Shown piece after piece: positions 1-53,879 of a DNA stretch of 64,000 nucleotides. Origin of the DNA: Psammoneis japonica (lineage: Eukaryota); the NCBI GenBank assembly GCA_008632985.1, contig QPGO01000060.1:1-64000 (forward strand). The letters are read 5' to 3'. Each line of letters opens with the position of its first letter. Position 1 is the stretch's first letter. Both the position numbers and the translations under genes were made by a program. The notes under the pieces were generated by a model. It ran no database searches. It saw only the letters and a program-made list of their open reading frames with translations, and was not told where the DNA came from.

Positions 1-74
1 GAGACTCATCTGCATTTAGACAGCAGTAAGGAGTTGTTGTTTGAATTCTTGCCATTTGCCTTCAATTTCTGTCA
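1..74 (+). repeat. 3' end of the 5' LTR
   Basis: gagactcatctgcatttagacagcagtaag...ttctgtca aligns to 6820-6894 with a few substitutions and one indel. Confidence 0.92.
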
Positions 75-6671: not shown

Positions 6672-6894
6672 CTTGCCGCGCACAGTTTTGTGTGCTTTAG
6701 TTCCGCGCGTTCGCGCGCGATGTAGTTTGCTTTCGAGCCACAAGGCTCACAAGAACAATGACAGTAGCCCGATTGTACCAACTTGCACGTCTTTCGGCTC
6801 CTGTGACGGTCTCTGAGTGGAGACTCATCTGCTGTTTAGACAGCAGTGAGGAGTCATTGTTTGAATTCTTGCCATTTGCCTTCATTTTCTGTCA
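6619..6894 (+). repeat. 3' LTR (276 bp) with TGACAG...CTGTCA terminal inverted repeat
   Basis: Starts tgacagg directly after the purine tract ggggag and ends ttctgtca. Its 3' end matches window bases 1-74. Confidence 0.92.
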
Positions 6895-9100: not shown

Positions 9101-10040
9101 AATGATGACACTTGAGCTCACAACCATGGAAATGAGCTAAAATGGAGCAGCACAACAAGCTGAAGCAACAACAACTGTCTTGAGCTCAAAAAGCACCAGC
9201 AGCTGCTGCTTTCAAAAGCAATCCTGGTCCTCACAAATGTGAAAAATCCACAAGAAGTGAGAGAAGGATGGAGAAGGTCCCAAACGCACCCCCAAAAAAG
9301 TCAGCTGGAAAAAAGACAGTTTTCCATGCCATGTCCATGAAAGAAATGAAGGATGGACAATGACCAAGATGAAGCTGGTCATGGAGGACCAAAAAGGACC
9401 AAAATGACATGTCAGCAAACCTGATGGTCCATGAGTGGATGAGCAAGACCAAACCCTCACAAAATCTGATGGCAACATTGGCGTGCATCACAGATCACAA
9501 ACTCTCATCACTGGCAGAGGATGGCATTGTCACAGTGACCAAGGACATGGCAAAGGTGACGAGGCTGCTGGGAGGTGGCCTGTGTTGACTGACCTTTGCT
9601 GACCTGCACTCTGTGCTTGTTCATGCACATGATGAGTTTTTTGGCAATGTGCAAGGGAAAAAATCTGGCACTGAACTCTGGGCAGTGCAACAATCTTGCC
9701 AGGAATTGAGGCTGCTGTGACCCCACCTTGCAACAGCCGCAACTCTTCAGAGCAATCGACTCAGCAACACCACAAGACATGCAGCAGCAACCATGGGATG
9801 CACAAAAGGATTAAAGTACAAGAGGAAGAGCAATCATTGAGTTTCCACCATGCCAGAAAAGGAAGCTGGGGCCGAGAAGCATTGAAAGAACAATGGGTGT
9901 GCAGAAGTGACAACGAAAGGACTGCAGAGGTTTCTGCGCTGCAAAATCCACCATCAAATGCAAGCAGCAGATGCTCTGACACATCACTGCAAATGGCAAG
10001 CATCAGCACAGAACAGAAAACAAAACAGCATGTTGTAGTA
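9100..10040. repeat. Unclassified TpA/CpG-depleted decayed repeat sequence
   Basis: Same TG/CA-rich, TA/CG-poor composition as the adjacent LINE; no recognisable domain. Confidence 0.45.
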
Positions 10041-10087
10041 AAAGACATCCCTGCCCATTAAGTGCAAAAGTTACAAGGTCCTCAAAC

Positions 10088-13000
10088 TCAGCGAAGAATG
10101 TCCAAACCTCCCTCCTCGCGCGGAGATGTCCGAACAAATTCGATTTCTTTTTGCACCCATTCTAAAAGATCCCACTGTCTCTCTCCCATGTTCCATTTGA
10201 GTGACAAAAACAAAATGTCTTCAACATCATCTTCAACAAACCCTGCGAGAGATGGTTTCACCCTTTCTCCGTACAGGCGTTCAACTTGGGGAGCATTCAC
10301 CTTGTCACGAGCAACTCTGGGAAATTCATCAACAAAGCATATTGCTGAGGTTAGCATCAGGGCAACCTCATGCGATTCCTTTGTGACATCTATGCCAAAG
10401 TTAGTCTGATGGACAGCAGTCAACGCAAAATCTTTCCAGTCAAAGCTGTGCTGTTCACCGCGACAAAAGAGCACTGCGGTCTGTCCTTCTTGTGTGTGGG
10501 ATAGGTCCCGCACCACTACCAACTCCTTCACTTGTGGCAAAATTTCTCTCCATGTGCTTTCAATAACAGACGGGTCATACTCATCACCACCAAAATTGAT
10601 TGATTTCCTGCTGCGTCCAGCTATGGTCAGCTTATTCTCGGTAAAAAAGCCAACATCTCCAGTTTCATACCATCCCTCATCATCCAAAGGGGTATCGGTA
10701 CCGCTGTTAAGATATTCGATCATCATTTGGCTTGATCGGAGAATAATGCTTCCTAGTGTGGCGTTCACTTCTTTTCGCGAATTCGTGCCGGGGTTTTCGT
10801 CGAGCGGCTCTACTCGTACTTCAACACCGTCACACAGAGTAAGAGCATCAGCCTCGGTAACATCGCGGCTTCCGATAAGGTGCGCTTCACTCGATCCATA
10901 GGTTTCATATATCTTTACGTGTGTCCCGTCTTCGCGTGAAAAGGCAAGTATGGCTTCATCGATACATGCCGGTAGTAGCTTGGATCCAATAGTCAATATT
11001 GTCCGCATTGACTGCAACGTTAGTGTCAGGTCTTCTGGATCCATATTGCTTACTGCGTCTACAACTTTGTCTAGTTGATGAGGAGAAACAACTGCGGCTG
11101 TGGCATCATTTGCCAACAAATATTCAAGAAGCCCTTCTTTTTCGTCGTCTTCCTCCTCCTCATCTTCTTCTTCTTGGAACGACGAACGAAAAATGGTATC
11201 AAAGATTGGCATCACGCACGCACCGAAAATCAAAGATGGAACATACACGTTGTCAAGACCCGCAGAGTCATCCATGCCGAGAGGACAGACTATCTTTTCG
11301 CTAGGGTCGTGTGATAGTAACTTCTGGGAATTGGTAGCAGTGACAAATACAGCCTCATATGAGCTTGCAACAACCTTTGGCAACCCTGTCGATCCAGACG
11401 TGAACGTCAGAATCGCTTCCTTGCTAAGAGGGAACGTCTTCGGTGTGTAAGGCAGTGCTGATAAATACGACTTCCAAGGAATGTCTTCTTCGACCAGAAT
11501 CATATTCGGTACACCTGGCACGAAGTCCAACGCCAAAACTACTCGAGTCGTGTTGTGACTATTCATGACAGATGAATAGCTCTCACTGGTCAAGCCATCG
11601 AGCACTATAACTGCGGGGTCAATAATCTCGACTACCTCGGGGAACCGGGGGTGCCACATCTGTCGTGCAACATTTGCATACGTGAAAGCATTCTTGAAAC
11701 AGGCGAGCATGAGTACGTATACATCGTACTCGTATGTAGTTTCAGGGGTCACAGCGATCATCACTCTTCCATTTGACCTAGGTGGCATGTGATGACGGAT
11801 AATCGCAGCTGCACGGTCAGCGTCGGCGTGGAGCTGTGCGTGCGTTCGGACAGTATCTCTGTATTCCCCTGAGGACTTTCCAACAGATACCATTGCGGGG
11901 GAAACTGCGAAGTTCTTGTCTGGTGGGCCGTCCAAAATTACAGACGCAGCGTGGATTAAGGCTTGATGTGAAGCTGAAGCGGCTTGATTCGGTGTAACAT
12001 TCACTTTAGACGGTGTTCCCACGGATCCACCAATAATAACGTCTTGCTTCGTAATCAGGAACCGGACTACACGATTGCTCACTGAGACACCACCGGGCTG
12101 GATCAAGACGTGCAAAAAACAGAGAAAAACAGGCAACCACATGATGCTGCGAGTCGAGAAGTTCTTAAATTCTCCCGTGTTGTTGGAGATCGCGGCTCTT
12201 TCGCTACCAATCTTTTTCGACTTTAACACATCCATGATACCTGGCTTGTTCTGGCAGTCGCTCCCATTTAAATCTTTTAGGGCTGTCCTTGCTACTTTCA
12301 AATTCACAGGCTCTGCCCCAATGCCAGCCATATGAAACCCAGGCCCCATTGCTATGATGATGACGCTGCGGCTTTCCTCAGTTAATTCGTTCCACGCTTC
12401 TGATGCCATTCGTAAGACTGTGCTTGACGCCAAGTTCCCGCCATCTCTGAGGCTAGAACGCATCCGAGCTATAGATTTTTGAGAAATATCAACCGCGGTG
12501 TTCTTTTCCATAGCATCAACCATCTTGGATCCGCCTGGATGAATGACATGCGACACTGTGGTCATTGGTGCAGCCCCCATAGGAGACACAGAAGACCTCT
12601 CGCTTGTTTTGGCAGTAAGGTCCGCAGCAAATCCAGGCACGTGCTTCTCAACAACGTCACAGAGCTCTTTTGTAGTGACAAAGTGATATCCCATTTGGTC
12701 GTAGTCAAAGTAGGAGACATGAGTCACGTGAGGGACACACTCTTGTTTTCCCGCAAGCACACGAAGCCCGCAAGCTCCTTCATTCCCATGGACGGAGTGA
12801 ATGCTATCTCTCACGGAATGTCCGCCCCGCATCACGCAAGCAGAGGCACAATCGCCGAATAGAGCAGAATTGAGGAACACACTCATACCTTGCTTGTGGG
12901 GCCGGAAACCAAGGGAGCAGAACTCCAAAGAGAGGATGAGTACGTTCTGAGTAGGGTTTCCCAGCAGCAAAGTTAATGCCATATCTAGGGCCACCGCACT

Positions 13001-14224: not shown

Positions 14225-15111
14225 GGAAGGCGTGCGAGAGAATGGGAGAGTCCACGAGTTTGTGAAATGAGGTCGCGATAAAAGAAATCTCGATGGAACC
14301 TGCAGGGAGTAAATGGTGGTGCAGTTGCAGACAATGTGTGTGAGTGATCGACGCGCAAGTGGAACAAACCAAGGCTCTCCCTCGAGACACAAGAGAGAAT
14401 ATGTCTGATGTTTGCCTTGTTTGGTGACATACCAGTACTGGTTGCTTTGAGCTGCACTGCTAAAACGAACGAATGAAATTTGGGAGAGGAAATAATTTTC
14501 AACGCGTGAATCTCCGAGTGCTTCCCGCCAAAACGAAAACGCATCCAGCCATGTTGACGAGATGGCACAGCTTTCAGCTTTCATGCCATCCGGCCGTTAT
14601 TAAATAAATAAAAACTGTATCGAGAATAAAGGACCTCTATCTTTTAAGTGGAGAGGGCCCAACTGACTCTATAATACAGCACATACTGCATAAATGTACA
14701 TTAGGTGCTGTGTTACTTACAGTAGGCCGCACTTGGGGAAACTTTCACACATACACTTCTCTATGCAATTATATGTATTCGTGTTCGAATAAAATAAAAA
14801 TTGGTGCGAAAATTTCACACATTTTTCGGCACGTGGCCTGATGATGCGTCAAAATTGGCTTTTGCTGACTCATAATAGAGTTGAAACACAATTTGATTGG
14901 CTGAAAATACAGCGCATGGGAACTGAACAACGGTCCACACAGCTTTTTCACTTCCTTGTTTTGCAAACTGTTTGTTGCGCAGAATTTCGCAATTAGAAAA
15001 ACCTGGACAACAGTGCAGCATTGCAAAAACCAGTGATGCACAGCAAGTGGACAGACTCCCAGCAACACTGAATTCACGTTCCCCATGATGACAACACTGT
15101 GCTGCCATCCA

Positions 15112-16340
15112 ATGAAATGGATGAGAAAGAAAGAGCCAACTGTTCCTTGCAGTTGTTCCACAAACTGAGACTCCTCCTGTTGCTGTTTGCGTTCTTTCTG
15201 GGTTGTCAAGGCATGATGACATCCTCACCTGCCATCTTTCCCCAGTCTCCGTCGGTCCAGGCAAAGAAAGAAAACAGCACTTCCACTCCCACTCGACTCT
15301 TGGTGGCCACCATTGTGGGAACCTCCAAGTTAGAAATGGCCCTGCACATTGAAGAATCCTGGCGGCAGTTCTTGGGTCCAAATGATGCACTTTGGACCGT
15401 TTGCGATGTTGGTTGTTCCAACATCGCAGGCAGCTCCGTGGTCGAAATGGATCCGGAATTAATCCATTCCGTTCGTCCAAACTTTGAAGAAAAAAACTGG
15501 GGATGCCAATTGGCACAACTCAAGTTTTGTCATGCCTTGATTTTGCAAGTGCAAGAATTTGCAAAAGACAGCAAACTGTCTCAGTGGACATTTGTCAAAG
15601 ATGACGACAACCATTTCCGTGCCGATCGATTGATGCAATTGGCGCAGAGGGAGTGGACTTTGCCAAGGAAAAAGCAAGTCTGGCAGGAGGGTGGCTTGGA
15701 CAAAGCACAGAAAGACAACATCCACCGGGGGATCATCTCTGTGGCCCTCCCAAAGGCTGTGGTTGGCCCTCGGGAGGTGCCGGATGGTTGGTCAGTCAAG
15801 CCATGGCACTGGAGTTGGCCACCCACCTGCAAGACCAAGTTTTTGATTTTATGTGACACAAACTGGAACAGTCCAAATGGGCCTTTCACTTTGACATGTG
15901 GCTTCCGGTTGTTGCCAATTGGGGTGGTGGGAAACTTCGCCATTCTCCTGCTTTGGTGCACTTGCAGCCGGGACAAACAACCTGTTTTGACCCGGGTGCG
16001 AATGCCACCTCCTTTGTTGCCCTGCACATCATGAAAGACTTTGTCAATGCACATGGTGGCACAGAAGAGGCTTTGAGGAGGATTGAAGACTGCATGTGGC
16101 TGCCCTTTGTGCCACCCATGGAATCACTGTGGGATTGGATGGCACAAACCAAAGGGCAAAATGCATCCATCGAGCATTGTGGGACTTCTTAACAAAAAAG
16201 AAAAACAAACCTCCATTCAACATTTCTCCCCTGACTTTTTTCATTGGTTGGCAAAAAAATTAGATGCTCATTCTTTGTCCCAAATGTTGCATCATGACAA
16301 AGTGGTTGCTCTAAGAGCTGCATCCAGGAAAGAGTTTTGA
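15112..16340 (+). pseudogene. Decayed Fringe/GT31-like glycosyltransferase gene
   Basis: N-terminal hydrophobic anchor (LRLLLLLFAFFLG) and WTFVKDDDNHF, resembling the WxxxxDDDxY motif of GT31/Fringe enzymes. The frame breaks after ~15650. The sequence is TA-depleted and the long ORF contains no Tyr. Confidence 0.5.
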
Positions 16341-17131
16341 GGGAGGTGCAGACAATGTGATCAGCCAAACAACACGTGCAAAAGCTGCCTGTGGCTCAGA
16401 ATTGCCACAAGGAGTCTAGCCAGCTAGTTGGCAAAGGGATGCAGTGCACATGAAAGCCAAGTCAAAGGCAAGAACATTGGAAGATGATGTTGGCAGCTCT
16501 CAGTTCTCAATCTCTGTTGCTTGCAAAGTGAGAGCCCTGGCAGCCCAGCTGGATTGAAATTTGAAACTGACGTCATTGGTGTCAAAAATCCAGTGCTTCA
16601 TGACATTTGCTCGGTTGCCACAACAAGAGCACAAGAAAACCAACAAGACTGAGTGAGTTGCTGTCTGTCTTGCATGACCCTTTGTAAAGTGAAGCTGATG
16701 ATTCTGATGACTCCCAGTGGCTTGTCAACCTTGTCACTTTGCCGTCATCAACTCTGGATGTGCAGCAATTGTTGTTTCTCAGTCAAGAACAAAAAATGTT
16801 CAAACCTTGTGATGACCAGATGGACCCTGCAGACCAGCAGCGCTGTGCAGCTGAGGCTGAAAGTGTCATGATTCTCATGGTGACTATGCTGCTGATGCCA
16901 AGGCCCTGGAAAATTCCAGCCAAACCCTTGTGTGCAGCTTAGAATTCCTTGCCGAGGCTGCCAATTCCCACTTTGGAAGACACGTGTTGCCACTTCCTTC
17001 CCACCACACTTGCCATGGCCGAAAATGATCCACAAGCAAAAAGGAGTCTCAAGGAGGCCAAATTTCCAGTTTTGCCTGAGGAAAAAAACCGGCAGACTGG
17101 CCAGCCAGCAGACACTCTGCTGGAGTGCTCA

Positions 17132-17351
17132 GAGCCAAGAGGGCAGGCCCAGCACAAGGAGAGGATGCCTTGTGGGTGGCTGAGCTCTTGGAGGAGTCAC
17201 CGTGCGACAGTGGCACGCAGCAGAAGGCAGGCAGACAGATGTGCGGACAACAACGAGAGGCCACCCCAGTTTCCCTCATTGTGTTTGGTGGACTGCCAGT
17301 GATGATGGGATCAGTTGCGTCAACCCAATGTGGGCCGACAATGCTGAAAAT
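17132..17351 (+). repeat. Split direct repeat A1
   Basis: gagccaag...cccagcacaaggagagga...gctgagctcttggaggagtcac...cccagtttccctcattg...gggccgacaa...ctgaaaat recurs at 25473-25708. Confidence 0.88.
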
Positions 17352-18620
17352 GTTGCTTCTGCCAAGTGGCATGCCTTGCACAATTGCCCACAAGCTGCAC
17401 ATGGTGCCAGTTGATCCATGGATTGGCTTGACCATCTTCAGAGCCTGCAAAACCATGATGAATCAGCCATCAACTTGAATCCGGTAATGTCCTGCAAGCC
17501 AAGTTGATTGTGCATGATGCCTGCATTGCTCTTGTTGCTTCTGAGTTGTTCTGTCAGAGTGCGAACAATGCAGTTTGGTGTTTTGTGTTGGCAGGTTGGG
17601 ATTGCTCCCATTGCCACAAATGCCCCTTTGATCATGTTGGATCCAGATGGTTTTCTGCAAGCCAACTGATCAGGATTGAATTGTGATCCACCTCGTTTTG
17701 TCTGATCTCACATCAGAATGTGAGTGCATTGTCCATGCATCCCATTGCTTTCCAAGCATGTCAACCTTCCGTTGATTGGCTGCTCTGCATCTGCCTTCTT
17801 TTCTCTCAATTGTGCTGAATCCGGACAACATCTACAAGCCGGTTAATCTGGATCACTGCCCTGATCCACCTCGTTTCATCTGATTTCAACCTCAGAACAT
17901 GAGCACATTGTCAATGCAGCCCAACATTGTTCAGGTCCACTGCCCTGCAATTGTCAGGTTGCTCTAAAAATTGGCCTCTGTGCCATGATTCTCTCTCCTT
18001 CCTTCACCCGCCATTGCAGTCACCAGATCTCACATCCATCTCATGTGTGTTCATGAACAGACTACATTCTGACCATTGCAATGGTTCCACATGAATCACT
18101 TTTGTGCTGTGACATGTTCTGAACACATTCTGTGTCAGAGTGTTCAAGCAAGGATGCTCCCCCACAAACATCTCAACAAAACCACTGATGCACAAAATCT
18201 GACACAAATTTGTGCACATTTTCAAACATGCCCCTCTGATCCAGGAATTTCTGCAAATGTTTGATTCCTGATGCACCTGGCAGATCATCTGTGCATTCTA
18301 TGGTGTTTGCATGAAAAATCGTGACCACAACTTTTGGAGATTTCAAATCTCTTGGGACAGACCTTTGGCTTCCCTCCATTTTCTTTCTGTTGGTCAAAAT
18401 TTCGACCTGCTCCACGTTGCTCTTGGTCTTGCAGTGCCTTGCAATTCTGATTCTGATTGTGTGAAGCAACTCCCTCTGAATTGCTCCGGTTTTCTGGTGC
18501 AATTTGTGCAGCATTCTACACCAAACTTTCCATCCAAAAACTTCATTTCTCTCCCACAAAACTTTGGTTTTGCCTTTTTGCACTTACCTTTCAAGCCTTC
18601 TCTTTGTCTCCCATCTTGCC

Positions 18621-20880
18621 ATGGCTGCCAACATTCTTGCTGCTGTTGAGCATGGCAAGAAAGCTTCTCCCATCAAGCGCTGTTCCCAGTCGGGAACACA
18701 GACCGAGTTTGCTCCTAAGCAGTCCAAGCTGGTCCTTCACTGTGACATCAACGGTGCTCTTGCCAACCATGTCTGCGGTCAATTTGATCAATTCTTGATG
18801 TTCTGCAAAGGCTGCATCATCCCTGTTCCTTTCATCAACAGTGGGAACCAAGTCAAGTTCTTGTCAAACTCTTCCGATGATGTCAGAGAAGTTGTCCCCA
18901 TGTTGGGCACTCACCAATGTTTCCAAGGACACTTTGTGACTCCAACCCCAATCCCAACCCTTGTGCATTGTGCTGACATTGTTGTGTTCAACCTGCCTTG
19001 AGCTGAGACTCCTCCAGATGATGTTGAAGGTCCACTTCTAACGGACGGCAATCAAGATGCGGCACCTTTCAAATGTCTCCATTTCAGTGACCCCACTGCT
19101 CAGGATGATCAACCTGTCATTGCTGCTCCTCCGATGGCATTCCCTGCACCTCCAGGCTGTTCCCACCCATTGGATTTTATTCCTGGAGGAAACTGCCCTA
19201 CAATGGCGGCCAATTTTCCTGCACTTGACATGTGGCAGAAAGGCATCACTCACATCCAGCAGCATGATGCCAGCTGCTCTCTCAAGGAAGGCAGACCTCT
19301 TTTTGACCAAGCTGTGGATGGTCTCCAAGTTGTTGATGACTATGTTGGTTTTAACATCTGCAACTTCTGCAACAATGATTTTCAGGCAGTTGCACCTTTC
19401 TCGGACAACTGCCGTCATGTCCAAACTGCCATCAAGACATTTTTGGATGCAACCTGGCAGGTGCCAGGTGCCACAATTCCAGTGGGCCAATGGGCCAATC
19501 CCGGAAATGGTGCCCAAGCTCACGGAGCCACCACTCACACTCCCCTTGCTGTCCAAGTCAAGGCCCCTGAATCCAAGAAGAACAAGGACCTCAAGAAGAG
19601 GGCTGGTGACATTCATGCCCATTTTTTGCTCATGTTCAGTCACAAGGTGGTTGAATCTGACACTGTTGCACTTCGAGAGCTCCAACAAGTTTTTGTTGAA
19701 GCCCTCCAAGAGTCTGGTGACACTGAATGGGCTCGCCTTGTCAACAAGATTGTTGCTGCGGCCATTGATGGTGTCAAGTCTGTGGACATCTTTGACCAAG
19801 CAGTGGCTCTTTGTCCTGCTTGCATCAACAAGGCTTTCACAGACGGAATCCATTGTTTCAAGTTTGTGGGTCAACCACTGAACACATCTGTCACTGCCTT
19901 TTTATCAAAGATCAACCTTCTGAACTTCCTCACCCCCCATGTGGACACCTCAGAATGCATCAAGATTGCCAAGGAAGGTCAGGAGCACAGCAGCCATTCT
20001 GTGAATGCTGACTCTAAGACCACAACTGCTGAGTCAATCAAGAAGTCAACCCCACACACTCATGGCCATGCTCAAGATTCCTTGGATGTTGTTGCAGCCT
20101 TGAGCAACTTCAGGCTTGCGTTCAGTGCTCTCATTGAGAATTTCGATGATGATTTTGTCTGGCAACAGCCAAATTGTTGCTGTGCGGTTGCTTTTGGTGA
20201 GATTGGAAAGCAATGGATCACGAGTGATTGAAATTCTCACAAGATTGCCGCCAATGTGCTCAATGACATTCAAACCATCATTTGCACCTTTGCTCAGCTT
20301 GGAAGCATCCCTCAGTGCCGCGAGGTGATTTGCACATCCCAAGATGTCAGTGTCAGGGCTCTGGATGTCTCTGAGCATCTCACAAACCAATCCATTCAGG
20401 ATTTGGAGGCCAACATTGGTCATGGTCCTCCCAGAACCTTTGGGAGCAAGTGTGCACTCTGCCAGCTTGCCAAGAAATCCAACACTGCTCCTGCGACTGC
20501 CAAACGTGCACTGGACTCTCCTGCTTCAATCACGTCTCTGGCCAAGAAGCCAAAGTTGCCTCCAACTTTGACGGCAGACGAAATTGAAGTCTGCAAGAAG
20601 CTGGGAATGCTTGTTGTCTCTGGCAACCCTCGTCAGCCCCCTGTTGTCCCTGTTTTGGCAAAGAAGGGACCCGACTCCAACACCAAGGAATGTTTGTTTT
20701 CCTTCTTCTTGATTCGTGGGTTTGGCTGCAACCATTCCAAGTGCAAGAAGCCTCATGTGGCAAACTTGCGCAGCCTTCCGGAGTCAAAGCACAAGGAGTT
20801 GATTGACTTTGTTGAGAAGTCCAATGCTCTTTCCTTTGCTGAAGGAAAGGGCCCCAGTGGTGCATCTTCTTTGTTTTGTC
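18621..20880 (+). pseudogene. ORF1 (gag-like) of the YR retrotransposon, fragmented
   Basis: Consecutive long + ORF pieces (18504..19001, 19134..20231, 20256..) upstream of RT, ending in a Cys/His cluster (C...CNHSKCKKPH). Assignment is mainly positional. Confidence 0.5.
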
Positions 20881-21423
20881 ATCTGATGAACTGGGGCACT
20901 TGGTTTTTGATGTGCATCAGTGACTTGCATGTTTTCTTTGACCTTGCACCACCAGCAAAGATCATGGACTCCAGAGCTGCACACACAGGTGGCACACCCA
21001 ATGCCTTTTCTTCTGCCAGTGCTGATGCATTCATGGAGGATGACATCATCCTTCCTCTTGCGGTTGGCAATCTCAAAAATGCTTCTGCATCCCTGGGGCT
21101 GGCAGCTCAGGATGTCACTGATGCAGCTCCAGTTTTTGTCTGACAACGTTGAGGAGTTTTGCCCTGTTTTACCCCCAATGACAACATCAGGGCATTGTCC
21201 CGCCCCTGTTCCAACCATCAATGACTCTGTGAAAAAGGCTGAACGAAAAGCATTTGTTTGCAGCCATCTCTCTGACCATGTTCGGTCTCAGCTGGAAAAT
21301 CCATTTGGCAAGGATTGCATTCATCAACTGTTTGCTTCAGAGGCCACTTGTGTTGCTGCCAATTTGGAAGTCTGGTTTCTTGTCTTCTAGTGCCACTGGA
21401 GAGAGCTTGTCTGCATCCAAGGG

Positions 21424-23700
21424 ATGTGTTGTGAACTTGGACAACCTGTGTTGCATGGCCCCAGATGTTTGGGTGTCTTTGTTGTCTCCTTCGGGATTGT
21501 CAATTTTAATTCCTTGAAGGGATGTCCTCAAGGCTGGGAAGAAGAAACGGAACCAAACAAAGACCATGTCAACCAGACTGCAGCAGGGACATTGCACTTT
21601 GATGGCAACCTGGCATCATTGGTCAGATGGGTTGGCAGCCCGCAAGCCGGAGCACATCAGCATGTTTGTTGGATCATTTCCTTTTTGGAGGAGAAGGTGG
21701 ACCCGCAGGTCATGCAAACTCTACAGTGCATGTGTCTGGACAGGGTTCTGGCCCATTGCAATGGCCACAATGCTGAAGAGAACTTCCAGGCCCATTTTAA
21801 TTGTGGGAATCATCCATCAGTTGATCTTGACCTGGAGAAAATGTGCAAGACACTGGTCGAGGACTCCAAGAGAGGCTTTGTCCTTGTTTTCGACAAGCAA
21901 ATCATCCCCCACATCTTAAACTGCCACTTGTCTCCCCAGAGCCTGGTTGGCATCAACAAGTCATTCAAGAGCCCGCAAGCAGTGTCCGACAGTGCGTTCC
22001 AGCCCACTCCATCTTCCATGGCTGTCAACGATTTTTTGTTGCTTGAATTCAAACCTTCCCATGGCAGTGCTGCCGTCAAGATGGACATTGTGTGCAGGAT
22101 GCATGACACATGGATGATCTTTCATCCAACAGAAGACATCCACCCAGTGGATGATGATGCCATGGGGGTGCACAGGACAATGAAGCATCACCCGAACCTT
22201 GTGGCGATGCACACTTCTGTCCAGTGTGGGTGTGGTGTTGCTCAGACTGGCTGCAACTTTGGAGACACCCCCAACCCTCCCGACTGGGATGGGGGTTGGT
22301 CCCAGAGCCACCAGCAATTGGCCCAACATGCTTTCCACATTCTGAATGTCATCAAGATCATGCAGCCTTTTTGCCAGAATTTGAGTTCCCAGCTCCTCCT
22401 GTGGAGGATGACATCTCTTCATTTGCCCAAGCTCTGCCAGACACATTAAACCCTGGGGGTTTCCAGGGTGGCCTTTGCATCTCACCGACCTTCAAACACC
22501 ATGTCATTGATGATTTGCATGTGGACGTCCATGACATCCTGCTCTGGACAGTCTCTGCAAGTGTGCTTGCAATCCATGTTCTCCAAGGTTTTCCTTGCAC
22601 AGAAGTGCCAAATGCTTTGAGCTTGGAGAAGCTCAACCTCCTCCTTTGCTGGATTTGCAAGCCACTTGGGAGGCTGCATGACACCAGGAGTTTGACTGTC
22701 GGCATGCCTGACTGCAAACATGACAAGCTTCTGGCTGTCCTTCAAGATTGGATGGGCAAGGTCAATTGCATTCTTGGGGAGGTGGCCTCTTTGTTGGGAA
22801 CACTGGAGAACCACACCCAACACTTCCCTTGGGCTTGTTGCTGGTTTTTTCAACTTCAGAACAATCTTTGGGCAGATGTGATTGCCAGGCACCATGTTGC
22901 CCAGTGCGTGTTCGACAACTCTGGTCATCATAACCAAATTTTGTTCCAACTTTCCCCAAAGCTCCTCTGCCGTCTGGAACCTCTTCTTGCTGAAGAAAAA
23001 GCCCAGCTTGTGTGCCATCTCCACATCAAAATCACAGTTTCCATGTCACTTTGTTGGTCCTTGCAGTTTGTTTGACGATGTGTCGAGTCAACTCCCAACC
23101 CTTGGGAGGCCGAGATTGGAGCTGTCATCCTGCGTGATCCCCACTGTCAGGGGATTGGTGATGCCATCAGTCTTGGTGGTGGCGGATGCTGCCAAGAATT
23201 TCAATTTTGGTTTCTTGTGCTTTGGGGTCCTGAAATTCAAAGAGGGCTCCACCTGCGGTCAGACTCTCCGGGCTGTGTCTTGATGAACTCTCTGGAGTTC
23301 ATCATTTCCATTTTGGTCCTGGCCAACATTGTTGCTTTTGTGGAGTCTGTTGATGAACCACCAGACCCTGAATTGGTCTCAGCTCTCTTCTCTTCCATGC
23401 CATCCTGGAGAACTTGGTGGTCAAGATGCGGACCGACAATGTTGTCGACAATGGGTGGCAAAATGGACATGTGATGAGCTCTCTCCAAGGCCAGCAACTG
23501 CTGCCAATTTGGTGTGCACTTTGCATTCGTGCTCACCTTGGCCTCAACTCTGGAGGCGTCCACTGGTCAGGCAACCAAATGCAACTGGCAGATGACATGT
23601 CTCAACTGTCTGACCCTCACTTGCCTCATTCTGTTCATGTTGCCCAGCTGTGTCAGAAATGTCCTTTTCTGAGGACTTGGACCTTTTTTTCTCCCCAGTT
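21424..23700 (+). pseudogene. Reverse transcriptase/RNase H of the YR retrotransposon, fragmented
   Basis: CGNHPSV, HLSPQSLV, DDDAMGVHRTMKHHP, NFGDTPNPPDWD and HHVIDDL (decayed YVDD); RNase H-like GDAISLGGGG, NSLEFI, TDNVV, HWSGNQMQLADDMSQL. Confidence 0.75.
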
Positions 23701-23789
23701 GAGAGCTGCTGCAACTGCTCTTCTCTCATCTGTTCTCCGAACTGCTGCCAGCCCCTGTGGAGACCCTGCAGTGCTCAGGACAGCTTGCA

Positions 23790-24870
23790 CAAGATGCACC
23801 CACCATTTCAAATTCACCAAGGATGTGAAGTGGGATGTGGGTGACCCGGAAATGCTCGTGGAGAAGCTCTTGGAGCATCATTGCCAACTGCAACTCACCA
23901 TGCATGCCATGCATGTTGCAGAAGGGACTTCCATTTTTTGTGAGAAACTAAAAGCCAACACCACATTTACTTGTGCAAAGGATGTCATGTCATTCATCAA
24001 GTTGTTTGGACGCTGCCGCGACTGTTGGCATGACCACTCTGTTGACACTGAGTTGAGAAAGTTGTTCCAAGACACAAAGAAGGAACTCCAGTGATGCAAC
24101 GAAGCTCCTGAGTGTTGCAAAGGTTTTGGCTCCAAGATGCTCCAAGAATCTAAGGAGCAGGCTAACACTGTCTGTGCTTCCAACCCGGATGGGCTGCTCT
24201 GCTCCATTTCTGATTGGCGCCAAGTGCGCCCATTCTGTGGTGCCTGTCTCCAAGAGTGGGCACAGACAAAGAGCAGATCTGACCCAGCTCGTCCGGCAAT
24301 TGATTCCCAAGGTGGCACCCAAACTTGGCATCTCAATGACATTGAGGTCAAAACTGACAACTGCCAATGCACCTGAGGGGCACCGACATCTTGTCAGTGC
24401 CCATCTCTTTGATCTCCAAGATGTGGGTCATGTGGCTCACCCAAAAAAATGAGGACAACGGTGAGGAGAAACTTTTTACTCTGAACCTCCAGCAAGACAG
24501 GCTTGACTTGGTCAAACCAACACACCATGTCATTGAGTGGTTTGTCTGCATCCATGGCACAAAGATGATGCCACTGCCCCTCTGTCCATTTACAAAAAAG
24601 CAGGTGACAAGGCAAAGCTGATCACCTCTGTGGAAATTGAGGATGACGTGCATGAAGTTGCCTCAAAAATCTGTCGCCTGGACCCTGTTGAGGATGCAGA
24701 AGCACTTTTGCACTGGTCAGCCCACTCTCTCCATGTTGGAGATTGTGTGTTGCTCCACCAAATGAACCTTGGTGCACAGTCTGTCCAATGGCTGTTGCGA
24801 TGGAGGATTTGTGGTTTGCCTCAGGAACTCTGCTCTCTTGGCAGACCACCAGTGCAGAGCTCTTGACTGC
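23790..24870 (+). pseudogene. Tyrosine recombinase of the YR retrotransposon, fragmented
   Basis: GACLQEWAQ (box I R-x-x-E remnant), WLTQKNEDNGE (TQKNG-type motif), SAHSLHVGDCVLL (HSLRVGA) and WLLRWR (box II). Confidence 0.75.
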
Positions 24871-25250
24871 TCTGCAGCCATGCCCCACCTCTTGTAAGAA
24901 ATTTTGAAAATTTCAAAATTTCTGTGACATTTCATTTTGTGTGTGCCACATGTTGCATGTTTCATGTTCCTTTTTTCAAATTCAAACAAGTGCAATCTGG
25001 TTTGATTGTGTTGGTTTTCTCATGCTGTCACTTGCATCGGTTTTCACTGTGCCAATTTCTTTGAATGTTTTTTCTCCTGCACAGCACATTTCCCCATTTG
25101 GGGCCCATGCAATCCTGACCGTCCACCCTCTTGAGGGTGCTGACCTTCAGTTTAAATCCTGTTTTTTCTTTTTTCTGGCTGGCCATGTGTTGCCTCTGAT
25201 GACATGGGTGCATGCGCTCCACTTCATGCAATGCGTCAGCAGCCACATGG

Positions 25251-25947
25251 TCTGTTCACACAGTGTTGGGGAACAAAATGGATGGAACCAGATCTGCAGA
25301 TTTGCTCCCTGTTTTCCAGCTGCTGTCCAGCAGCACCACACGAACACACATGCTCCACACATTGGACACATTCATGCATTGATTGTTGCACCCATTTTTC
25401 GGCTTGCGCGCTGTGTCATGTCATCGGGGTTGCAGCTGAGCCAAGGCAGTGGCAAGGAATCTGCGATTCTTGGAGCCAAGACGGCGGGCCCAGCACAAGG
25501 AGAGGACACCTTTTGGGCGGCTGAGCTCTTGGAGGAGTCACTGCACAACAGCAGCACCCTGCAGAAGGCAGACAGACAGATGGACAACGATGAGAGGCCG
25601 CGGGCGGGCCGCGTGCCCCAGTTTCCCTCATTGTTTTTGGCAGACTGCCAGCAACGATGGGATCAGTTGCATCCACCCGATGCGGTGTGGGCCGACAACG
25701 CTGAAAATTCCCACCCAACCCAGACCTCTGTTCACTCAGTGTTGGGGAACAAAATGGACCGAACTGGATCTGTGGATTTGTTCCCTGTTTTCTAGCTGCT
25801 GTCTCAGCAGCACCACACGAATGTATGTGCTCCATACATTAGATATATTCGTGTATTGATTGTTTTGTCCATTCGGCAGCTTGCACTGTGTCATGTCATC
25901 GGGGTTGTAGCCAAGCCGAGGCGTGGCAGGGAATCTGCGATTCCTGG
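25251..25947 (+). repeat. Split direct repeats B1-A2-B2
   Basis: tctgttcac...gtgttggggaacaaaatgga...ggaatctgcgattc occurs at 25251-25472 and 25727-25947, flanking the A2 copy. Confidence 0.9.
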
Positions 25948-26344
25948 TCATTTTTTCATTCCTTGAATGGTCATTATTTCGATCTTGTGTCCCCATGACT
26001 TTTCATTTGGTGCCTCCATCGAATGATTTATGTCAAATGTCGCGATTTATGACAAAGGTCATAAACTCTGTTTTTCATATAAGCCGAGATTTATCGGTAA
26101 TCGTGCAAATTTCGCAGTGGTCATTATTTTATTCCAATCTGCGCGGTACTTCGTAGGCTTGTAATACGACGTTGCCTGGACATTTCGTTGTATCGAAAGG
26201 GTCACAAGTCAAAAAGCGCGGAGCTGCCGCCACCAAAACTGCACAACGCACAACACAACCACCGTCAAGCCTTTCATTCTGTGTGCAAGGTTGGTAGGAA
26301 CTAAAAGGACGACCGTCAAAAGGACCAGAATCATCATTCCCAAC

Positions 26345-29300
26345 ATGATTCTTAGAGTATTTGCCGTCACGTGTCTACTATGTCCGTCGGTGACGGCTCT
26401 CCGTGGGGGGAGAAAGGCTGCAGAGCGTCATCCTATCGACAACCACAACGACATCGAAGAATTTAGCTTTGAAGATGATCTTGAGATGGATCGTCTTGTC
26501 GAGCTTGACATAATTCAGGAAATGATGGAGAGCACTTTGCTCGGAAAGGAGGACGAGGAGAAGAGTAGTCTTGCTTCCAACTCGTCGTCATTCCCGCTTC
26601 AAGATGTAGTAGTACAAGCTCCCGTACAAGAAGCGCACCGCTCACTGGTGGCGGAACCTTCGTTTGCCCCTCTCGACTGCAACACTGCAGTCAGTCTCGA
26701 GACTCAACAGTGCACGACACCATGGTCTACGTATGTGGGTGCGAATTCCACTTTTGAAGAGGAAGTAGTGATTGGATGTGGTGATTGTGTGATCTTTGAT
26801 TATACTGGATCTGACATGCTCCTTCTGGACTTCAAGAGAGGCTTGGATATTCAAGGAAAGCTAGTTATACCTAATGCAACGAGGCTGCAAATCGAGACAA
26901 TCCATGTAAGAGTACAAGGATATCTCGAAATGACATCAAGAAAGATCGTGGACGGAGTGGAAGATATTAGGTACGCTGTGGCATGTTCTTGTTCTGTTTA
27001 TGCTCAAGTCACGTTGAAAACCTTCTTTCTCCTTACGGTTTTGGTTCATTTCGTGCTATTATATATTTCAGAATTATTCTCAAGGGAAAGTCCATATATA
27101 GGACAAAGTTTACACCCGCTGATAGTAACTCTGCTCTTGGTAGGCAGAGCCCAGGGAAGAAGCCGTTCATTGTTGCCGGAGGAAAAATTACCGTCCACGG
27201 CCTTCCCGAGGACACACCCACATGGGTAAATATACCTCTTGACGACAGCGTCTTTCGAACGTATGGCACCGCCCATGTTTTTCACACTCTTTGGTTTCTT
27301 TCCGTTCGCTTTCTAGCTACCCGTGCATGATGTGGTCACTGCAGATGTCGGCCCGGCACTTGATGTATCTCAGTTTCCTTCCTTCGATCCACCAGAACCA
27401 CACTGCCCGTCCGACGGAATTCTACTCAATGAAACGTTCGCTTCGGCTGGCACGGTCGACTCTTCCAGCGTCTTTGCGTGCCTCGGATCCGAGATTGAGC
27501 ACACTACAGCATCTACTGCGGACGGTGTCACCAATGTCGTTGTTTCAAAGGAGAGAACAAACAAACGCCATGGGCTTCAGATTGACCTCAAGAGGATTAA
27601 ATCCTGCCTCAAGGCTGGCGACACCATGATTTTGACTGCCAGAGTTAGACTCTCCGTGGACGGTTCTAATTCTACCAATGCGTTGACTACATGCGCCATG
27701 AGTGGAGATGGCTGTCTGGCTGTCATTTCGGAAGTCATGAGGGCTGACACTTACGTTTCCCGAAAGGAAAAGTACAAGGAAAGGCAGTCCTTCCAATTCA
27801 AGTATGACGAGTGGTTGGTTGTGTCTTCTGAGTTTATGTTTGAAGAGAGTGAAGTCGAGAGCGATGTAATTTTTCAAACGTTGCGCTTTGAAGGTCCACT
27901 AGAAGGTGTCAATATTGAGATCGACAATGTTGTTCTTAGGTATCCACCAAGAGAGGCCTTTCCTGATGGATCCACGGTGTGCCAAGATTTGGTCGGTACC
28001 AACGGAGACGCGCTCCAAGTTGGAGACTCGCCTTATCCATTCTACAAGAACTATGGCCCGATCAATCTACAAGTCAAGCAGGAAGCCGGCAACCCGTACT
28101 TTGCGGTGTCTGGACGTAAATACGCGTACTACAGAAGTGACATTGACAACGATTACCAATGGACTAGTATGGCGGTCGAGTTTCCCGTTGGATGCGTACC
28201 AAAGGGATCAAGGTTTCGGTAAGAACAACATTTTCTTTCGTTCGGCGCGTCTAGGTTTTCCTCTTCTCACCAAGGATGCATCGATTGCTTGTACCATGTT
28301 TCACTTGAACAGGTTCAGTATGAGGGTGCGAGTGCATCCGAATCAAGAGTATAGTAATCCGGAGGGGATATGGGTGTATATCAAGGGTTTTCACAACTAT
28401 CCATCGAAGGACAGAACTTATACGAAGGTTACCCAGTGCCCTAAGAGTAGCGGTGATTTTGTCTTTTGTGAGGCGGATTTCGAAGTCAAGGAGTCCATGA
28501 CAAAAAACGCCCCCTACAAATATGAACTATACTTCCAGACCGTTAATGCCCCTACCGTGGAGTACGACGTTGACGATCTTCAATTCGCCCGAACCTCTGG
28601 TCCTCTCTTCCAGGTGGTTGTCAACAACGAAGTAAAGAGCAAGTGGGGAGTTGGTGCCGAGGTGCTGGTAACTTCAAATACACTCGATTACGATGAACAG
28701 CAAGTGCGCACCATCACGAGTATCACGGACCACACCGACAGTGCTTTTGCTGTAGTGGCTCTCAATGATGTGATTACTCTTCCGTCCACAGTCGCCAAGA
28801 ATCCTGCGTATGCGTCCGAAATGGCATTATTGTCCCGAAACATAGTGCTGGAAGGAGCAAAAGATGACAATACAACGATTGGAGCGCATTTTATCGTGCA
28901 GGAGACTCCAAACGTGCCGCAAACTCTAGAAGGTGTTGAATTTCGGAACTTTGGCCAACAGAAAGAGCTCGCGCGCTATCCCATCAACATGCATATGTGC
29001 GGCGACGTTCCTGGGACTCGCATTACAAAGAATCTTATTCGCGAGTCTCATCAACGTTGCGTTGTCATTCAAGGTACCAATTTCGTCGAAGTTAGTGACA
29101 ACATTGCCTTTGATACTAGAGGTCACTGCTTCATGACGGAGGATGGCAGTGAGCATGACAATATGTTTATCGGAAATTTGGGCGCGCTGACTAGAAACAC
29201 TCCATCGAGTGGCCTCATCGTCCGAGAAACAGGAGATGGATCCGAAACTGACAACAACGCAGCAACGTTCTTTATCAATAGCGTTGCAAACACGTACATT

Positions 29301-44340: not shown

Positions 44341-44570
44341 AGGTAAAGGGAGCAGTGCAACACGTGTCGGAAGGTCATTGCCGCGTGTCAAAAATTCTGC
44401 GCCAACGAAACATTCGTTGTACTAAAACTCTGTAGAATCCTACGTAAAAGATGCGTGCCTCCTCGGCATTTTGAGGCGAACTTATCTTGGAATTTCCCCT
44501 CGCTCATTCATCTTCATTCTTCATCTCACTCTCGCTGTGTTGTTCCTCCATTGCAGGCAGTGAAGCAGAG

Positions 44571-53673: not shown

Positions 53674-53879
53674 GATTACTGCTAAAGGGAGAGCAAAGAG
53701 AGACAGTTTCGACAAGATCTATCCGGAGCAGCAGAGCGTCATCGTGTTGGAGTGTGTCGTCGTTCGTCATGTGATGCGTCGCTGTTGCGTTTTGTTGCGG
53801 TGTGTCGTCATCTCACTTGGGCGATTGTGCTTCCGAAACAAGAGCGAACAAGCTGGCTGAGCAACTTTTTCCCTTTGAT

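Follow-up and report, generated by a model that had tools for sequence, protein, structure and literature searches.

How does one copy of a repeat come to lack TA dinucleotides entirely when a second copy, lying next to it, retains several of them? The question is posed by a window of 64,000 nucleotides from the diatom Psammoneis japonica (contig QPGO01000060.1, positions 1 to 64,000, to which all coordinates below refer; blocks and repeats carry no strand assignment). The window alternates between gene islands and four TA-depleted blocks, and the two repeat copies, B1 (25251..25473) and B2 (25727..25947), are found where one of these blocks meets an island. We consider here the direction in which the copies have diverged, the regional setting of the changes and the kinds of process that might have produced them.

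The B1/B2 repeat pair

B1 lies within 639 bp that do not contain a single TA and itself has 0 TA, 6 CG, 30 CA and 25 TG. B2, at the block edge, has 8 CG and 8 TAs, all of the latter between 25793 and 25908, so that the distal part of this copy (25793..25947) carries 51.6 TA per kb and its counterpart in B1 (25317-25473) carries none. The spacer that separates the copies (25474..25726; 0 TA, 14 CG) is a member of another repeated family, with raised depth and a 78%-identical copy at 17132-17351. The 5' end of B2 is shorter than the family: a contig from sequencing run X2, which represents a third family copy, runs on upstream of 25727 and there resembles the sequence upstream of B1.

When aligned over 224 columns (25251-25473 against 25727-25947), B1 and B2 are 82.6% identical and differ by 35 substitutions, 30 of them transitions. 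Changes among CA, TG, TA and CG account for 24 of the 35 (7 CA/TA, 1 TG/TA, 6 CA/TG doubles and 4 CA/CG), and opposite all eight TAs of B2 there is CA or TG in B1. The sequence-only reading that drew attention to the pair had compared two 41-nt strings, both of which are present, the B1 string starting at 25344 as given and the B2 string at 25821, one position beyond the 25820 reported. Its inventory of their 11 differences was accurate (six TA in B2 against CA or TG in B1, one CG against CA and two TG/CA doubles, all of them transitions at pyrimidine-purine, or YR, steps). The broader statement that the copies differ almost only at TA sites suits this excerpt and is a poorer fit to the whole unit, where 11 of the 35 substitutions lie outside the CA/TG/TA/CG changes. 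In 20,000 simulations that scattered 35 substitutions at random over B1, keeping the transition share as observed, the CA/TG doubles (6 observed, 0.96 expected; P=5e-5) and the YR-class substitutions as a whole (24 observed, 16.0 expected; P=0.0014) were in excess. The changes involving TA were ordinary in number when taken alone (8 observed, 6.35 expected; P=0.29), and the striking part is their one-sidedness, with eight TAs in B2 and none in B1.

The B sequence is a dispersed repeat of high copy number, represented by numerous diverged copies in other parts of the genome. Matches at a likeness of at least 80% were found in 195 contigs of sequencing run X1, and over 25164..25963 the summed contig depth reaches ~2,900, compared with ~59-68 in the unique flanks. 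Frames over B had no Pfam match, and Rfam, tRNA and tandem-repeat scans around it gave nothing relevant. Run X2 supplied one further contig and run X3 none, and no RNA runs carrying 24500-27000 were listed. A search of metagenomes for further copies with a 19-nt pattern returned 25 loci, in which the blastn likeness spanned only 19-30 nt round the pattern; they were rejected as chance matches.

Direction of change

The pair alone is unfit to polarise its own differences, and direction was drawn from further copies, namely one full contig from run X2 and 40 of the 136 rows with another letter in run X1. At 25765-66, 25773-74 and 25822-23, where B1 reads CA and B2 reads TG, the X2 contig has TA; it also shares TA with B2 at six further sites at which B1 has CA or TG. 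In the depth of run X1 on B2, A is found at 25766 in 76%, at 25774 in 84% and at 25823 in 54%. Among the rows listed there is no alternative to the T that precedes each of these positions, and the family majority is TA at 25765-66 and 25773-74.

B1, B2 and the X2 contig form a star-like tree, with 14, 10 and 8 private differences, respectively, over 146 columns. The three-way comparison yields 12 changes away from a TA node (eight TA>CA and one TA>TG in B1, three TA>TG in B2) against three apparent gains of TA, one at 25846 (CA>TA in B2, by parsimony) and two in the X2 contig, although the tree is unrooted and a root on the B1 branch would make up to nine of the 12 losses readable as gains on the stem shared by B2 and X2. 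The changes in B1 are biased towards CA (8:1) compared with those in B2 (0:3; Fisher P=0.018, on 12 sites only). Two CG>CA/TG events in B1 and one in B2 were polarised in the same way. At 25866-67 the X2 contig has CG, B1 has CA and B2 has TG, and the earlier suggestion that CG was the ancestor of some opposite-strand sites holds at this position. Judged from the three copies, sites at which CA faces TG would mostly be descended from TA and otherwise from CG.

The direction proposed from the pair, from TA to CA or TG, is thus supported beyond the pair by the X2 copy, by the X1 majority and by two protein-coding relics described below, and the outgroup or consensus comparison that the sequence-only reading had named beforehand favors TA, not CA/TG, as the ancestral state. 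The opposite proposal is that CA and TG are ancestral and that the TAs of B2 arose later through CpA>TpA changes of the classical C>T kind, like those of repeat-induced point mutation (RIP) in ascomycete fungi. This would accommodate the private change of B2 at 25846, the nine differences whose sense depends on a B1 root and the TA content of distal B2, which is above the island mean of 35-39 per kb; many diatoms also have DNMT4 enzymes that fall into one group with the RID of fungi (PMC9998398). The proposal is nevertheless very improbable in our judgment. Wherever the root is placed, the three sites that read CA in B1, TA in the X2 contig and TG in B2 require either a step away from TA or a passage through CG, and for two of the three the rows listed for X1 have TA in the majority. 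The 639 TA-free bp in which B1 lies, set in a block with a TA observed/expected ratio of ~0.05, are the opposite of a RIP product, and two relic genes have Cys or His in place of conserved tyrosines, where RIP would make TA and stop codons.

One might also suppose that the TA loss is an error of a long-read assembly, in which modified bases at TpA in silent chromatin were called wrongly. Run X1 may be the window's own source sample and so not independent, and the sequencing platform is without a record. Such an artefact has very little to recommend it, since contigs of X1 show 0-2 differences from the TA-free zone, one contig of 11,911 nt equals the flank exactly, and 90% of the sampled 31-letter words are present in that run. 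Contigs of up to 315 kb and a word depth of ~60 point to polymerase-based accurate reads, in which modified bases are read as the parent base, and TA, CA or TG occur at one and the same site in different family copies within a single run.

Loss of tyrosine codons in coding relics

Two relics of coding sequence bear on the direction of change. The first is a degenerate Copia-type LTR retrotransposon on the + strand (1..6894; LTR ends at 1-74 and 6820-6894), with 9 TA and 67 CG per kb, a GC of 0.56 and a CG observed/expected ratio of 0.8-0.96. A tblastn search with four Copia relatives found no further Copia fragments in the window outside 1023-6608. The element contains an open frame of 1170 aa with RVT_2 (3159..6671, + strand), which was examined at the 36 columns that have Tyr (codon TAY) in 70% or more of 80 relatives. 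Tyr remains at only 7 of these columns and has given way to Cys (TGY) at 17, to His (CAY) at 7, to Phe at 4 and to Trp at 1. For each of the other residue types, 71-100% of the columns conserved in these relatives still have the expected residue, and the Tyr content of the frame is 0.77%, compared with 2.86-4.97% in 120 relatives. The two LTR ends differ by five substitutions over 75 columns, including one TA/TG change and one TG/CA double; because the LTRs belong to one element, these changes arose after integration.

The second relic is a decayed gene in the same block as B1 (18480..21140, + strand), a single frame with 2 internal stops that is kin to an uncharacterised family of ~760-aa proteins (62 relatives, best E=8.5e-26). 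It keeps none of six consensus tyrosines (2 are now His, 1 Cys, 2 Phe and 1 Leu), and it differs from its relatives in Tyr (0.23% vs 2.01%), Cys (3.95% vs 1.57%) and His (4.06% vs 2.56%). Both relics show change from TA to TG or CA in this genome, independently of the B repeats. Another frame, at 21391-22446, had no relative at E<=0.001, and 80 frames of at least 100 aa from the depleted blocks gave six weak Pfam matches, all below curated cut-offs.

TA- and CG-depleted blocks and their borders

The block that contains B1 extends over 14909..25792, with 4.0 TA per kb compared with 35-39 in the islands. It largely coincides with a CG-depleted block (14848..25399; 14.8 CG per kb compared with 52-60 in the islands), the right border of which falls within B1, ~390 bp inside the TA border. 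The second block (6808..10091) is depleted of both TA and CG; the third (39645..44419) and fourth (53446..56549) TA-depleted blocks are accompanied by CG-depleted spans at 39419-44195 and 53846-56260, respectively. All borders were set by a two-state HMM, which places those of TA and CG 50-400 bp apart and puts the boundary of the TA state inside B2, at 25792/25793. The adjoining island, with its first long open frame at 26165..27229 (+ strand), is normal in TA and CG and has unique depth from ~25964.

Blocks that are short of both dinucleotides have TA observed/expected ratios of 0.01-0.11 per kb (0.17 in the kilobase with the B repeats; about 0.05 for the 11-kb block around B1 as a whole), CG ratios of 0-0.43 (0.50 in the B-repeat kilobase) and CA/TG ratios of 1.6-1.9. 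The corresponding values for the gene islands are 0.37-0.76 for TA (about 0.55) and 0.6-1.2 for CG (about 1). Non-coding island DNA keeps its TA (observed/expected 0.59, compared with 0.54 in long ORFs), and the retention of TA in the islands is therefore not owed to selection on coding sequence.

The CpG deficit and TpG/CpA excess that mark methylated-CpG decay are both present in the blocks, and one could imagine that such decay acted alone, with the CA/TG doubles all derived from CG and the TA differences as noise. Decay of this kind does occur here, as the three polarised CG events and the CG kept by the X2 contig at 25866-67 illustrate; the deep blocks are strongly depleted, with only 5-15 CG per kb. 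Further evidence of it comes from another pair of repeat copies, in which the border copy (39412-39868) has CG where the deep copy (41800-42249) has TG at several sites. As the sole cause, methylated-CpG decay is already contradicted by the TA depletion of the blocks and the loss of Tyr from the Copia element, and there is next to no chance that it suffices: it is unable to remove TA, which stands at an observed/expected ratio of 0.01-0.1 in the blocks; the Copia element lost TA and kept CG; and the replacement of Tyr by Cys or His involves no CpG.

The sequence-only reading also held that TA retention depends on position, over ~500 bp. This is plausible. The TA border does pass through the inside of B2, but this is one pair only, in which distance from the gene is confounded with distance from the edge of the repeated DNA (~25963). 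The pair at 39412-39868 and 41800-42249, which is 75% identical and has 6 TAs in the border copy and 3 in the deep copy, is too diverged to inform on TA, offering a single clean TA/TG site and another of the opposite sense. A change in the same direction might be targeted by homology or repetition, with the TAs of B2 spared through lying within ~40-170 bp of the end of repeated DNA and not through nearness to a gene. We regard this alternative as unlikely, but as one to be taken seriously. The multi-copy zone ends at ~25963, near the TAs that B2 has kept (25793-25908), more repeated DNA (the spacer family) lies beyond the homologous part of B1, and the recognisable content of the TA-depleted DNA consists of the Copia element and repeat families. 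On the other side, blocks end close to a gene at four other places, with the borders 10035/10091 at the 3' end of a gene at 10088-14596 and the borders 14848/14909 ~250-300 bp past its other end. The segment 25100-25163 is TA-poor at single-copy depth, from which it follows that targeting by present-day repetition is not established, although this is a weak objection because repeats diverged by more than 20% would escape the depth count.

Context, strand and tempo of TA loss

Relative to the islands, TA survival in the blocks is 0.03 for TAT, 0.06 for TAC, 0.14 for TAG and 0.23 for TAA. ATAT, GTAT and ATAC are absent from the blocks and GTAC occurs once; the commonest surviving context is TTAA, with 16 of the 75 remaining TAs. 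Tyr codons gave no confirmation of the preference for TAY, the Cys:His ratio standing at 12:3 where a pyrimidine precedes the codon and at 5:4 where a purine does (Fisher P=0.36), and trinucleotide products do not separate a change of A in TAY from a change of T in RTA, CpG decay feeding both. Runs tests of CA against TG in the blocks (z=-1.4, +3.0, -0.04 and -2.9; overall between -2.9 and +3.1) gave no consistent clustering, and nothing in the blocks shows processive action on a single strand.

Selection offers a different account, in which TA is purged from silent DNA as harmful, for instance as a source of cryptic TATA-like promoters or of targets for TA-specific transposases or nucleases. 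TA and TTAA are the insertion targets of mariner and piggyBac, respectively, and the TA-free state does remove both these and TATA-like motifs. We give selection scant credence nonetheless, in that acting on single dinucleotides in decaying non-coding repeats it could hardly clear 95-99% of sites, TTAA is the very context that survives best, and the elements' own conserved residues have been destroyed, as would be expected of mutation pressure.

In the younger parts of the depleted DNA, that is, the Copia element and the zone around the B repeats (25164-25792; TA 0, CG 36.6 per kb, GC 0.545), the loss of TA is ahead of the loss of CG. Because the Copia element has lost TA and kept CG, the TA process is separate from CpG decay and apparently the faster of the two.

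A proposed explanation

What the sequence shows is the direction of change, the organisation into blocks, a bias of context and an origin of some of the changes after integration. These features are best accounted for, with a good measure of confidence, by a regional transition process from TA to CA or TG, the zone of which has a border running through B2. B1 and B2 are two copies of a ~223-bp segment of a dispersed diatom repeat and lie on the right margin of a gene-free block of 11 kb, and the four blocks and the Copia element would all have been subject to a context-specific process that converts TpA to CpA or TpG (A:T>G:C at TpA) on either strand, acting best at TAY/RTA. CpG>TpG/CpA decay would form a second, slower component in the older blocks. 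All ancestral TAs of B1 would have disappeared within the TA-free zone; the border of that zone would cross B2, leaving 8 TAs in its distal 155 bp and stripping the proximal part. Where one copy has CA and the other TG, an ancestral TA (mostly) or CG would have decayed independently on opposite strands.

From these properties we infer that the block represents silenced chromatin and that the change is driven by an enzyme. The most likely candidate cause is deamination of DNA adenine by a TadA/ADAT-like enzyme, and an alternative candidate is a TET/JBP-like enzyme that oxidises thymine to a base pairing with G. A more far-reaching possibility, to which we incline only tentatively and at somewhat less than even chances, is that the activity, a putative TadA-like adenine deaminase of T-A-Y or a thymine oxidase, is a dedicated DNA mutator of silent chromatin at TpA, faster than methylated-CpG decay and serving as an "anti-RIP" defence. 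Such a mutator would strip transposons of all their Tyr codons, TATA-like motifs and TA insertion targets, would raise GC and would never itself create TAA or TAG stops, and the B1/B2 pair would locate the end of its chromatin domain to ~100 bp.

A heritable, region-specific removal of TpA by A:T>G:C change would be a new mutational force in a eukaryotic genome and would point to an enzyme activity on DNA that is not yet known; to our knowledge, the hypermutation-based defences and the forms of decay described so far (RIP, APOBEC, methyl-CpG decay) all deaminate cytosine. A natural adenine-directed DNA editor would be of interest to base-editing technology. There are also practical consequences for diatom genomics, in that TA-depleted blocks hide transposon genes from homology searches, as the lack of any Pfam match at curated cut-offs in the 80 frames illustrates, and distort composition-based gene finding; because TAA and TAG are missing, long false open frames arise in the blocks. 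The particular value of B1 and B2 is that a domain border falls inside a sequence of which the ancestral state can be reconstructed.

Comparison with known systems

The literature searched yielded no description of TpA-destroying mutation in diatoms or other eukaryotes, and we compare the process with systems that share some of its features. Editing by APOBEC3 or ADAR before integration likewise produces retrotransposon copies hypermutated by context-specific transitions, but it marks one strand, leaves LTRs equal, spares DNA other than retroelements and would not stop at a block border within a repeat copy. Editing of A to I at the RNA level would affect the transcribed strand only and be fixed at integration; in the Copia frame both Tyr>Cys (17) and Tyr>His (7) are found, B1 has changed mostly to CA and B2 to TG, the LTRs differ and the border cuts a repeat copy.

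The A-to-I deaminases themselves (ADAR, ADAT and TadA) prefer a 5' U, the natural target of TadA being U-A-C-G in tRNA-Arg, and TadA has been engineered into DNA adenine base editors. They resemble the process described here in changing A to G after T (U), the depletion being strongest at TAY (TAT 0.03 and TAC 0.06, compared with TAA 0.23). They differ from it in being RNA enzymes, whereas the changes here are heritable, lie in DNA on both strands and come after integration, and we know of no natural eukaryotic DNA adenine deaminase. Hydroxylation of thymine by TET/JBP enzymes generates 5-hydroxymethyluracil in dinoflagellates and base J in kinetoplastids. It provides a precedent for regional modification of T, and G can pair with thymine in oxidised form, so that TA would become CA, or TG on the other strand. 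In the literature searched we found no report of a modified thymine of this type in diatoms, and we know of no case in which TET/JBP activity has left TA-free blocks.

Methylated-CpG decay, as in the silenced transposons of vertebrates and plants, shares with the blocks the loss of CG to TG and CA and a regional mutation bias tied to chromatin; it leaves TpA untouched, the reverse of what the Copia element displays. Diatom transposons are CpG-methylated, and the function of diatom DNMT4 is stated as unknown (PMC9998398).

RIP, which needs a RID/DNMT4-type enzyme and occurs before meiosis, offers a parallel and a contrast to the process described here. Both are dinucleotide-specific transition hypermutations of both strands, limited to repeated or silent DNA, and both leave blocks of skewed composition, with ruined transposon genes, beside normal genes. 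RIP changes C:G to T:A, mostly CpA>TpA, and its products are TA-rich, AT-rich and full of stop codons. Here, the 12 losses of TA against three apparent gains and the 24 of the 36 conserved Copia tyrosines that are now Cys or His run in the other direction, and the product has TA at 0.01-0.1 and CA/TG at 1.6-1.9 of expectation. As for the duplicated DNA on which RIP acts, recognising it by homology, the B family is multi-copy and Copia a transposon, and 25100-25163 is TA-poor at single-copy depth. With TA destroyed (A:T>G:C), GC raised (0.545-0.56 in the young parts) and TAA and TAG stops vanishing, the loss of TA from the blocks is the reverse of the mutation by which fungi kill their repeats.

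Dinucleotide Composition and Gene Content

The window is diatom DNA. For its protein with four helicase-associated (HA) domains, the relatives with an informative organism name are all from diatoms, two bacterial entries excepted (best identity 42-46%), and introns are few or absent in the window's genes. Segmentation by per-kilobase dinucleotide ratios and a two-state HMM yielded gene islands at 10036-14908, 25793-39644, 44420-53445 and 56550-64000, with 35-39 TA per kb (observed/expected, obs/exp, ~0.55), CG obs/exp ~1 and CA/TG obs/exp ~1.05-1.4, and TA-poor blocks at 6808-10091, 14909-25792, 39645-44419 and 53446-56549, with ~4 TA per kb (obs/exp 0.01-0.1), CG also depleted and CA/TG obs/exp 1.6-1.9. 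A Copia-type retrotransposon occupies 1-6894 and forms, at 1-6807, a segment of its own, with 9 TA per kb, an undepleted 67 CG per kb and CA/TG obs/exp ~1.3-1.5. The retention of TA in the islands is not a by-product of coding selection, since their non-coding DNA retains TA too (obs/exp 0.59 vs 0.54 in long frames). Selection against TA is an implausible explanation for the blocks, given the completeness of the loss in decaying repeats, and CpG decay alone, which has no means of removing TA, cannot account for them.

Island genes at 27903-29369, 34734-36767, 47598-48659, 51982-53718 and 59691-61361 encode a CEMIP-type beta-helix, DUF1800, a fatty acid hydroxylase, the four HA domains and an SNF2 helicase with a CW zinc finger. 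A 1502-aa open frame at 10088-14596 (-), in which a type III polyketide synthase (chalcone/stilbene synthase N and C domains) is fused with an AMP-binding enzyme domain, is closely adjoined by depleted blocks on both sides. Depleted blocks (15000-25800, 40000-44400) are themselves rich in long open frames on both strands (e.g. 19002-20228 and 21391-22446); with TA absent only TGA is left as a frame stop, so that such frames are a trap for gene finders. Within a depleted block there is also a tandem array (42197-42433, period ~73 bp, 91% identity between units) that is very TG-rich, with 28-29 TG vs 11-12 CA per unit pair, a local strand skew.

Differences Between Two Neighbouring Repeat Copies

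B1 (25251-25473), a repeat copy inside a TA-free zone, and B2 (25727-25947), its neighbour at the right edge of the TA-poor block, are true direct repeats of 82.6% identity, separated by a 253 bp spacer from another repeat family, a copy of which (78% identity) lies at 17132-17351. They differ by 35 substitutions in 224 aligned columns, 30 of them transitions; 24 are changes among the four pyrimidine-purine (YR) dinucleotides (7 CA/TA, 1 TG/TA, 6 CA/TG tandem doubles and 4 CA/CG) and 11 lie elsewhere. The sequence-only reading, in which the copies differ almost only at TA sites, thus describes its 41-nt excerpts well (11 of 11 differences at YR steps; letters exact, the B2 excerpt starting at 25821 rather than 25820) and the whole unit only in part. 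With 35 substitutions placed at random, at the observed transition share, in each of 20,000 simulations, CA/TG doubles averaged 0.96 vs 6 observed (P=5e-5) and YR-class substitutions 16.0 vs 24 (P=0.0014); TA-involving changes, 8 vs 6.35 simulated (P=0.29), are not unusual in number. What stands out is their one-sidedness: B1 has no TA and B2 has eight, each opposite CA or TG in B1.

Direction of Change

The pair by itself cannot be polarised; contigs from two public sequencing runs, X1 and X2, were aligned to 25100-26050 at a likeness of at least 80%. The repeat zone (25164-25963) is multi-copy, with 195 X1 contigs aligned and a summed depth of up to ~2,900 vs 59-68 in the unique flanks; X2 contributed one contig over 25727-25876, with 18 of its 19 differences listed. 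Over 146 columns B1, B2 and the X2 contig are nearly equidistant (14, 10 and 8 private differences, respectively), and distances so similar have the look of copies of one family. With the majority base of the three taken as the node state, B1 has undergone 8 TA>CA, 1 TA>TG and 2 CG>CA changes, B2 3 TA>TG, 1 CG>TG, one CA>TG double and one apparent CA>TA (25846), and the X2 contig two apparent TA gains. A root on B1's branch could turn up to nine of its 'losses' into gains on the stem of B2 and the X2 contig. At 25765-66, 25773-74 and 25822-23, however, B1 has CA, B2 TG and the X2 contig TA, which under any rooting requires at least one step away from TA, unless by a detour via CG; the CA/TG site at 25866-67 derives from a CG still present in the X2 contig.

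Where B2 has G, A is carried by 76% of the X1 depth at 25766 (6 contigs), 84% at 25774 (7 contigs) and 54% at 25823 (3 contigs), shares affected by the placing of each contig on whichever copy it most resembles; the T preceding these positions has no alternative in X1 among the 40 of 136 differences listed. TA is thus the commonest family state at 25765-66 and 25773-74 and accounts for about half of the depth at 25822-23. That modified bases produced an artefact in the assembly is unlikely: X1 may be the assembly's own sample, but its contigs show 0-2 differences from the TA-free zone, and TA, CA or TG are carried by different copies among them.

Because TAY codons alone encode tyrosine, conserved Tyr columns show what became of TA. 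For the Copia frame (3159-6671), 1214 relatives reach E<=0.001; aligned with the best 80 of these, the frame keeps 7 of 36 Tyr columns (Tyr in at least 70% of the 80), the others including 17 Cys (TGY), 7 His (CAY), 4 Phe and 1 Trp, whereas all other residue types are retained in 71-100% of the columns where they are conserved. Its Tyr content is 0.77% vs 2.86-4.97% in 120 of the 1214 relatives, with Cys at 3.59% (relatives' mean 0.94%) and His at 5.38% (3.54%). A second relic, at 18480-21140 (+), lies inside B1's own block in one frame with two stops and has 62 relatives (~760 aa, function not assigned; best E=8.5e-26). Aligned with 46 relatives (560 aa or longer; the 16 shorter ones were excluded), it retains none of the six consensus Tyr, which are now 2 His, 1 Cys, 2 Phe and 1 Leu, and also shows Arg>Cys/His and Leu>Pro, of the type expected of CG and CTA decay. 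Its family is without Pfam domains, one of five scanned relatives having a C-terminal CCCH zinc finger, and it may be the gene of an unclassified mobile element.

Judged from the Tyr fates in both relics, the change in this genome runs TA>TG/CA, and the CA/TG sites of B1 are its products. The direction proposed from the pair, which alone was insufficient, is borne out with outgroups added, by the CA/TA/TG sites, the X1 majority and the Tyr loss. The opposite account, in which B2 gained its TAs by classical repeat-induced point mutation (RIP) as in fungi, is contradicted by those three sites, the family majority, the TA-free block and Tyr>Cys/His.

Position Dependence

The HMM border for TA (25792/25793) falls within B2 and that for CG (25399/25400) within B1; TA is absent from 25154 to 25792. 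At the seven TA-node sites at or beyond 25793, B2 keeps six and loses one and B1 loses all seven (Fisher P=0.005), a difference that coincides with the HMM border. The TAs kept by B2 are near the gene island and also ~40-170 bp from the end of the repeated DNA, and a homology-dependent, RIP-like process with an edge effect would account for them equally well. The other border-straddling pair (39412-39868 vs 41800-42249), 75% identical and too diverged for a TA comparison, has CG at several sites of the border copy that read TG in the deep copy, so that CpG decay is linked to position here much as TA loss is in B1 and B2. As the 'internal control' for which they had been taken, B1 and B2 serve for direction, given outgroups; for position dependence they provide a first hint, real in itself but from one pair and with distance to the gene island confounded with distance to the repeat end.

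Timing, Target and Mechanism

The five substitutions between the LTR ends of the Copia element include one TA/TG and one TG/CA double; since the ends were identical at integration, the process acts, in part at least, on DNA already inserted. It affects both strands (17 Cys vs 7 His in Copia; CA for the most part in B1, TG in B2). Editing of retroelement RNA or cDNA before integration is, in its simple form, excluded by these post-integration differences and the involvement of both strands. Younger parts have lost TA, kept much CG and gained GC (Copia GC 0.56; zone 25164-25792 with 0 TA, 36.6 CG per kb and GC 0.545), and the deep block is depleted of both dinucleotides, so that TA loss, a process separate from CpG decay, seems to precede it. 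Per kilobase, GC in region 1-7000 is 0.52-0.59, compared with 0.45-0.52 for the rest, and TA but not CG has been lost there. Such a composition of the Copia element would follow from A:T>G:C at TpA as the first step, with CpG decay scarcely under way.

Survival relative to the islands is 0.03 for TAT, 0.06 for TAC, 0.14 for TAG and 0.23 for TAA. The blocks contain no ATAT, GTAT or ATAC and a single GTAC; TTAA, the rarest island context, is their commonest survivor (16 of 75). As ratios of context counts, survival is graded from ~0.005 for RTAY through ~0.08 with one favourable side to ~0.35 for YTAR. These contexts suggest a T-A-Y target preference (R-T-A on the other strand), as from a strand-specific activity; Tyr-codon fates lean in the predicted direction, not significantly (P=0.36), and runs tests on whole blocks detected no consistent strand-coordinated CA or TG runs. 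Within the third-copy overlap, lost TAs became CA in eight cases and TG in one in B1, and TG in 3 of 3 in B2 (Fisher P=0.018). Such a CA-biased B1 and TG-biased B2 could mean that in each copy one strand was the main target, although the block-wide tests are without such clustering.

A regional, TpA-specific A:T>G:C transition pressure has thus acted on both strands, after integration, in domains common with CpG decay. These domains would be silenced chromatin, in view of their CpG decay, their lack of genes, their transposon origin and the CpG methylation of diatom transposons (PMC9998398). We infer an enzyme because other causes would hardly remove 95-99% of one dinucleotide, and do so with a flanking-base preference. 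The preferred candidate would be a TadA/ADAT-like enzyme deaminating adenine in DNA; enzymes of this type naturally read U-A-C. Alternatively, a TET/JBP-type enzyme might oxidise thymine to a G-pairing base.

Comparison with Known Systems

A full-text literature search, mostly at the level of abstracts, found no account of a process that destroys TpA, whether in diatoms or in other organisms. The process resembles RIP in its context-specific transitions confined to repeated or silent DNA, but differs in base change and product composition, by which RIP is defined, and is therefore not a member of that class; the diatom DNMT4 enzymes group with fungal RID, their function being described as not known in PMC9998398. 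Methyl-CpG decay in its ordinary form coexists here with TpA loss, and A-to-I editing has a like outcome, but the change here is in DNA. We regard the process as a form of regional hypermutation of silent DNA, with a substantial chance of a categorically new enzyme activity as its cause.
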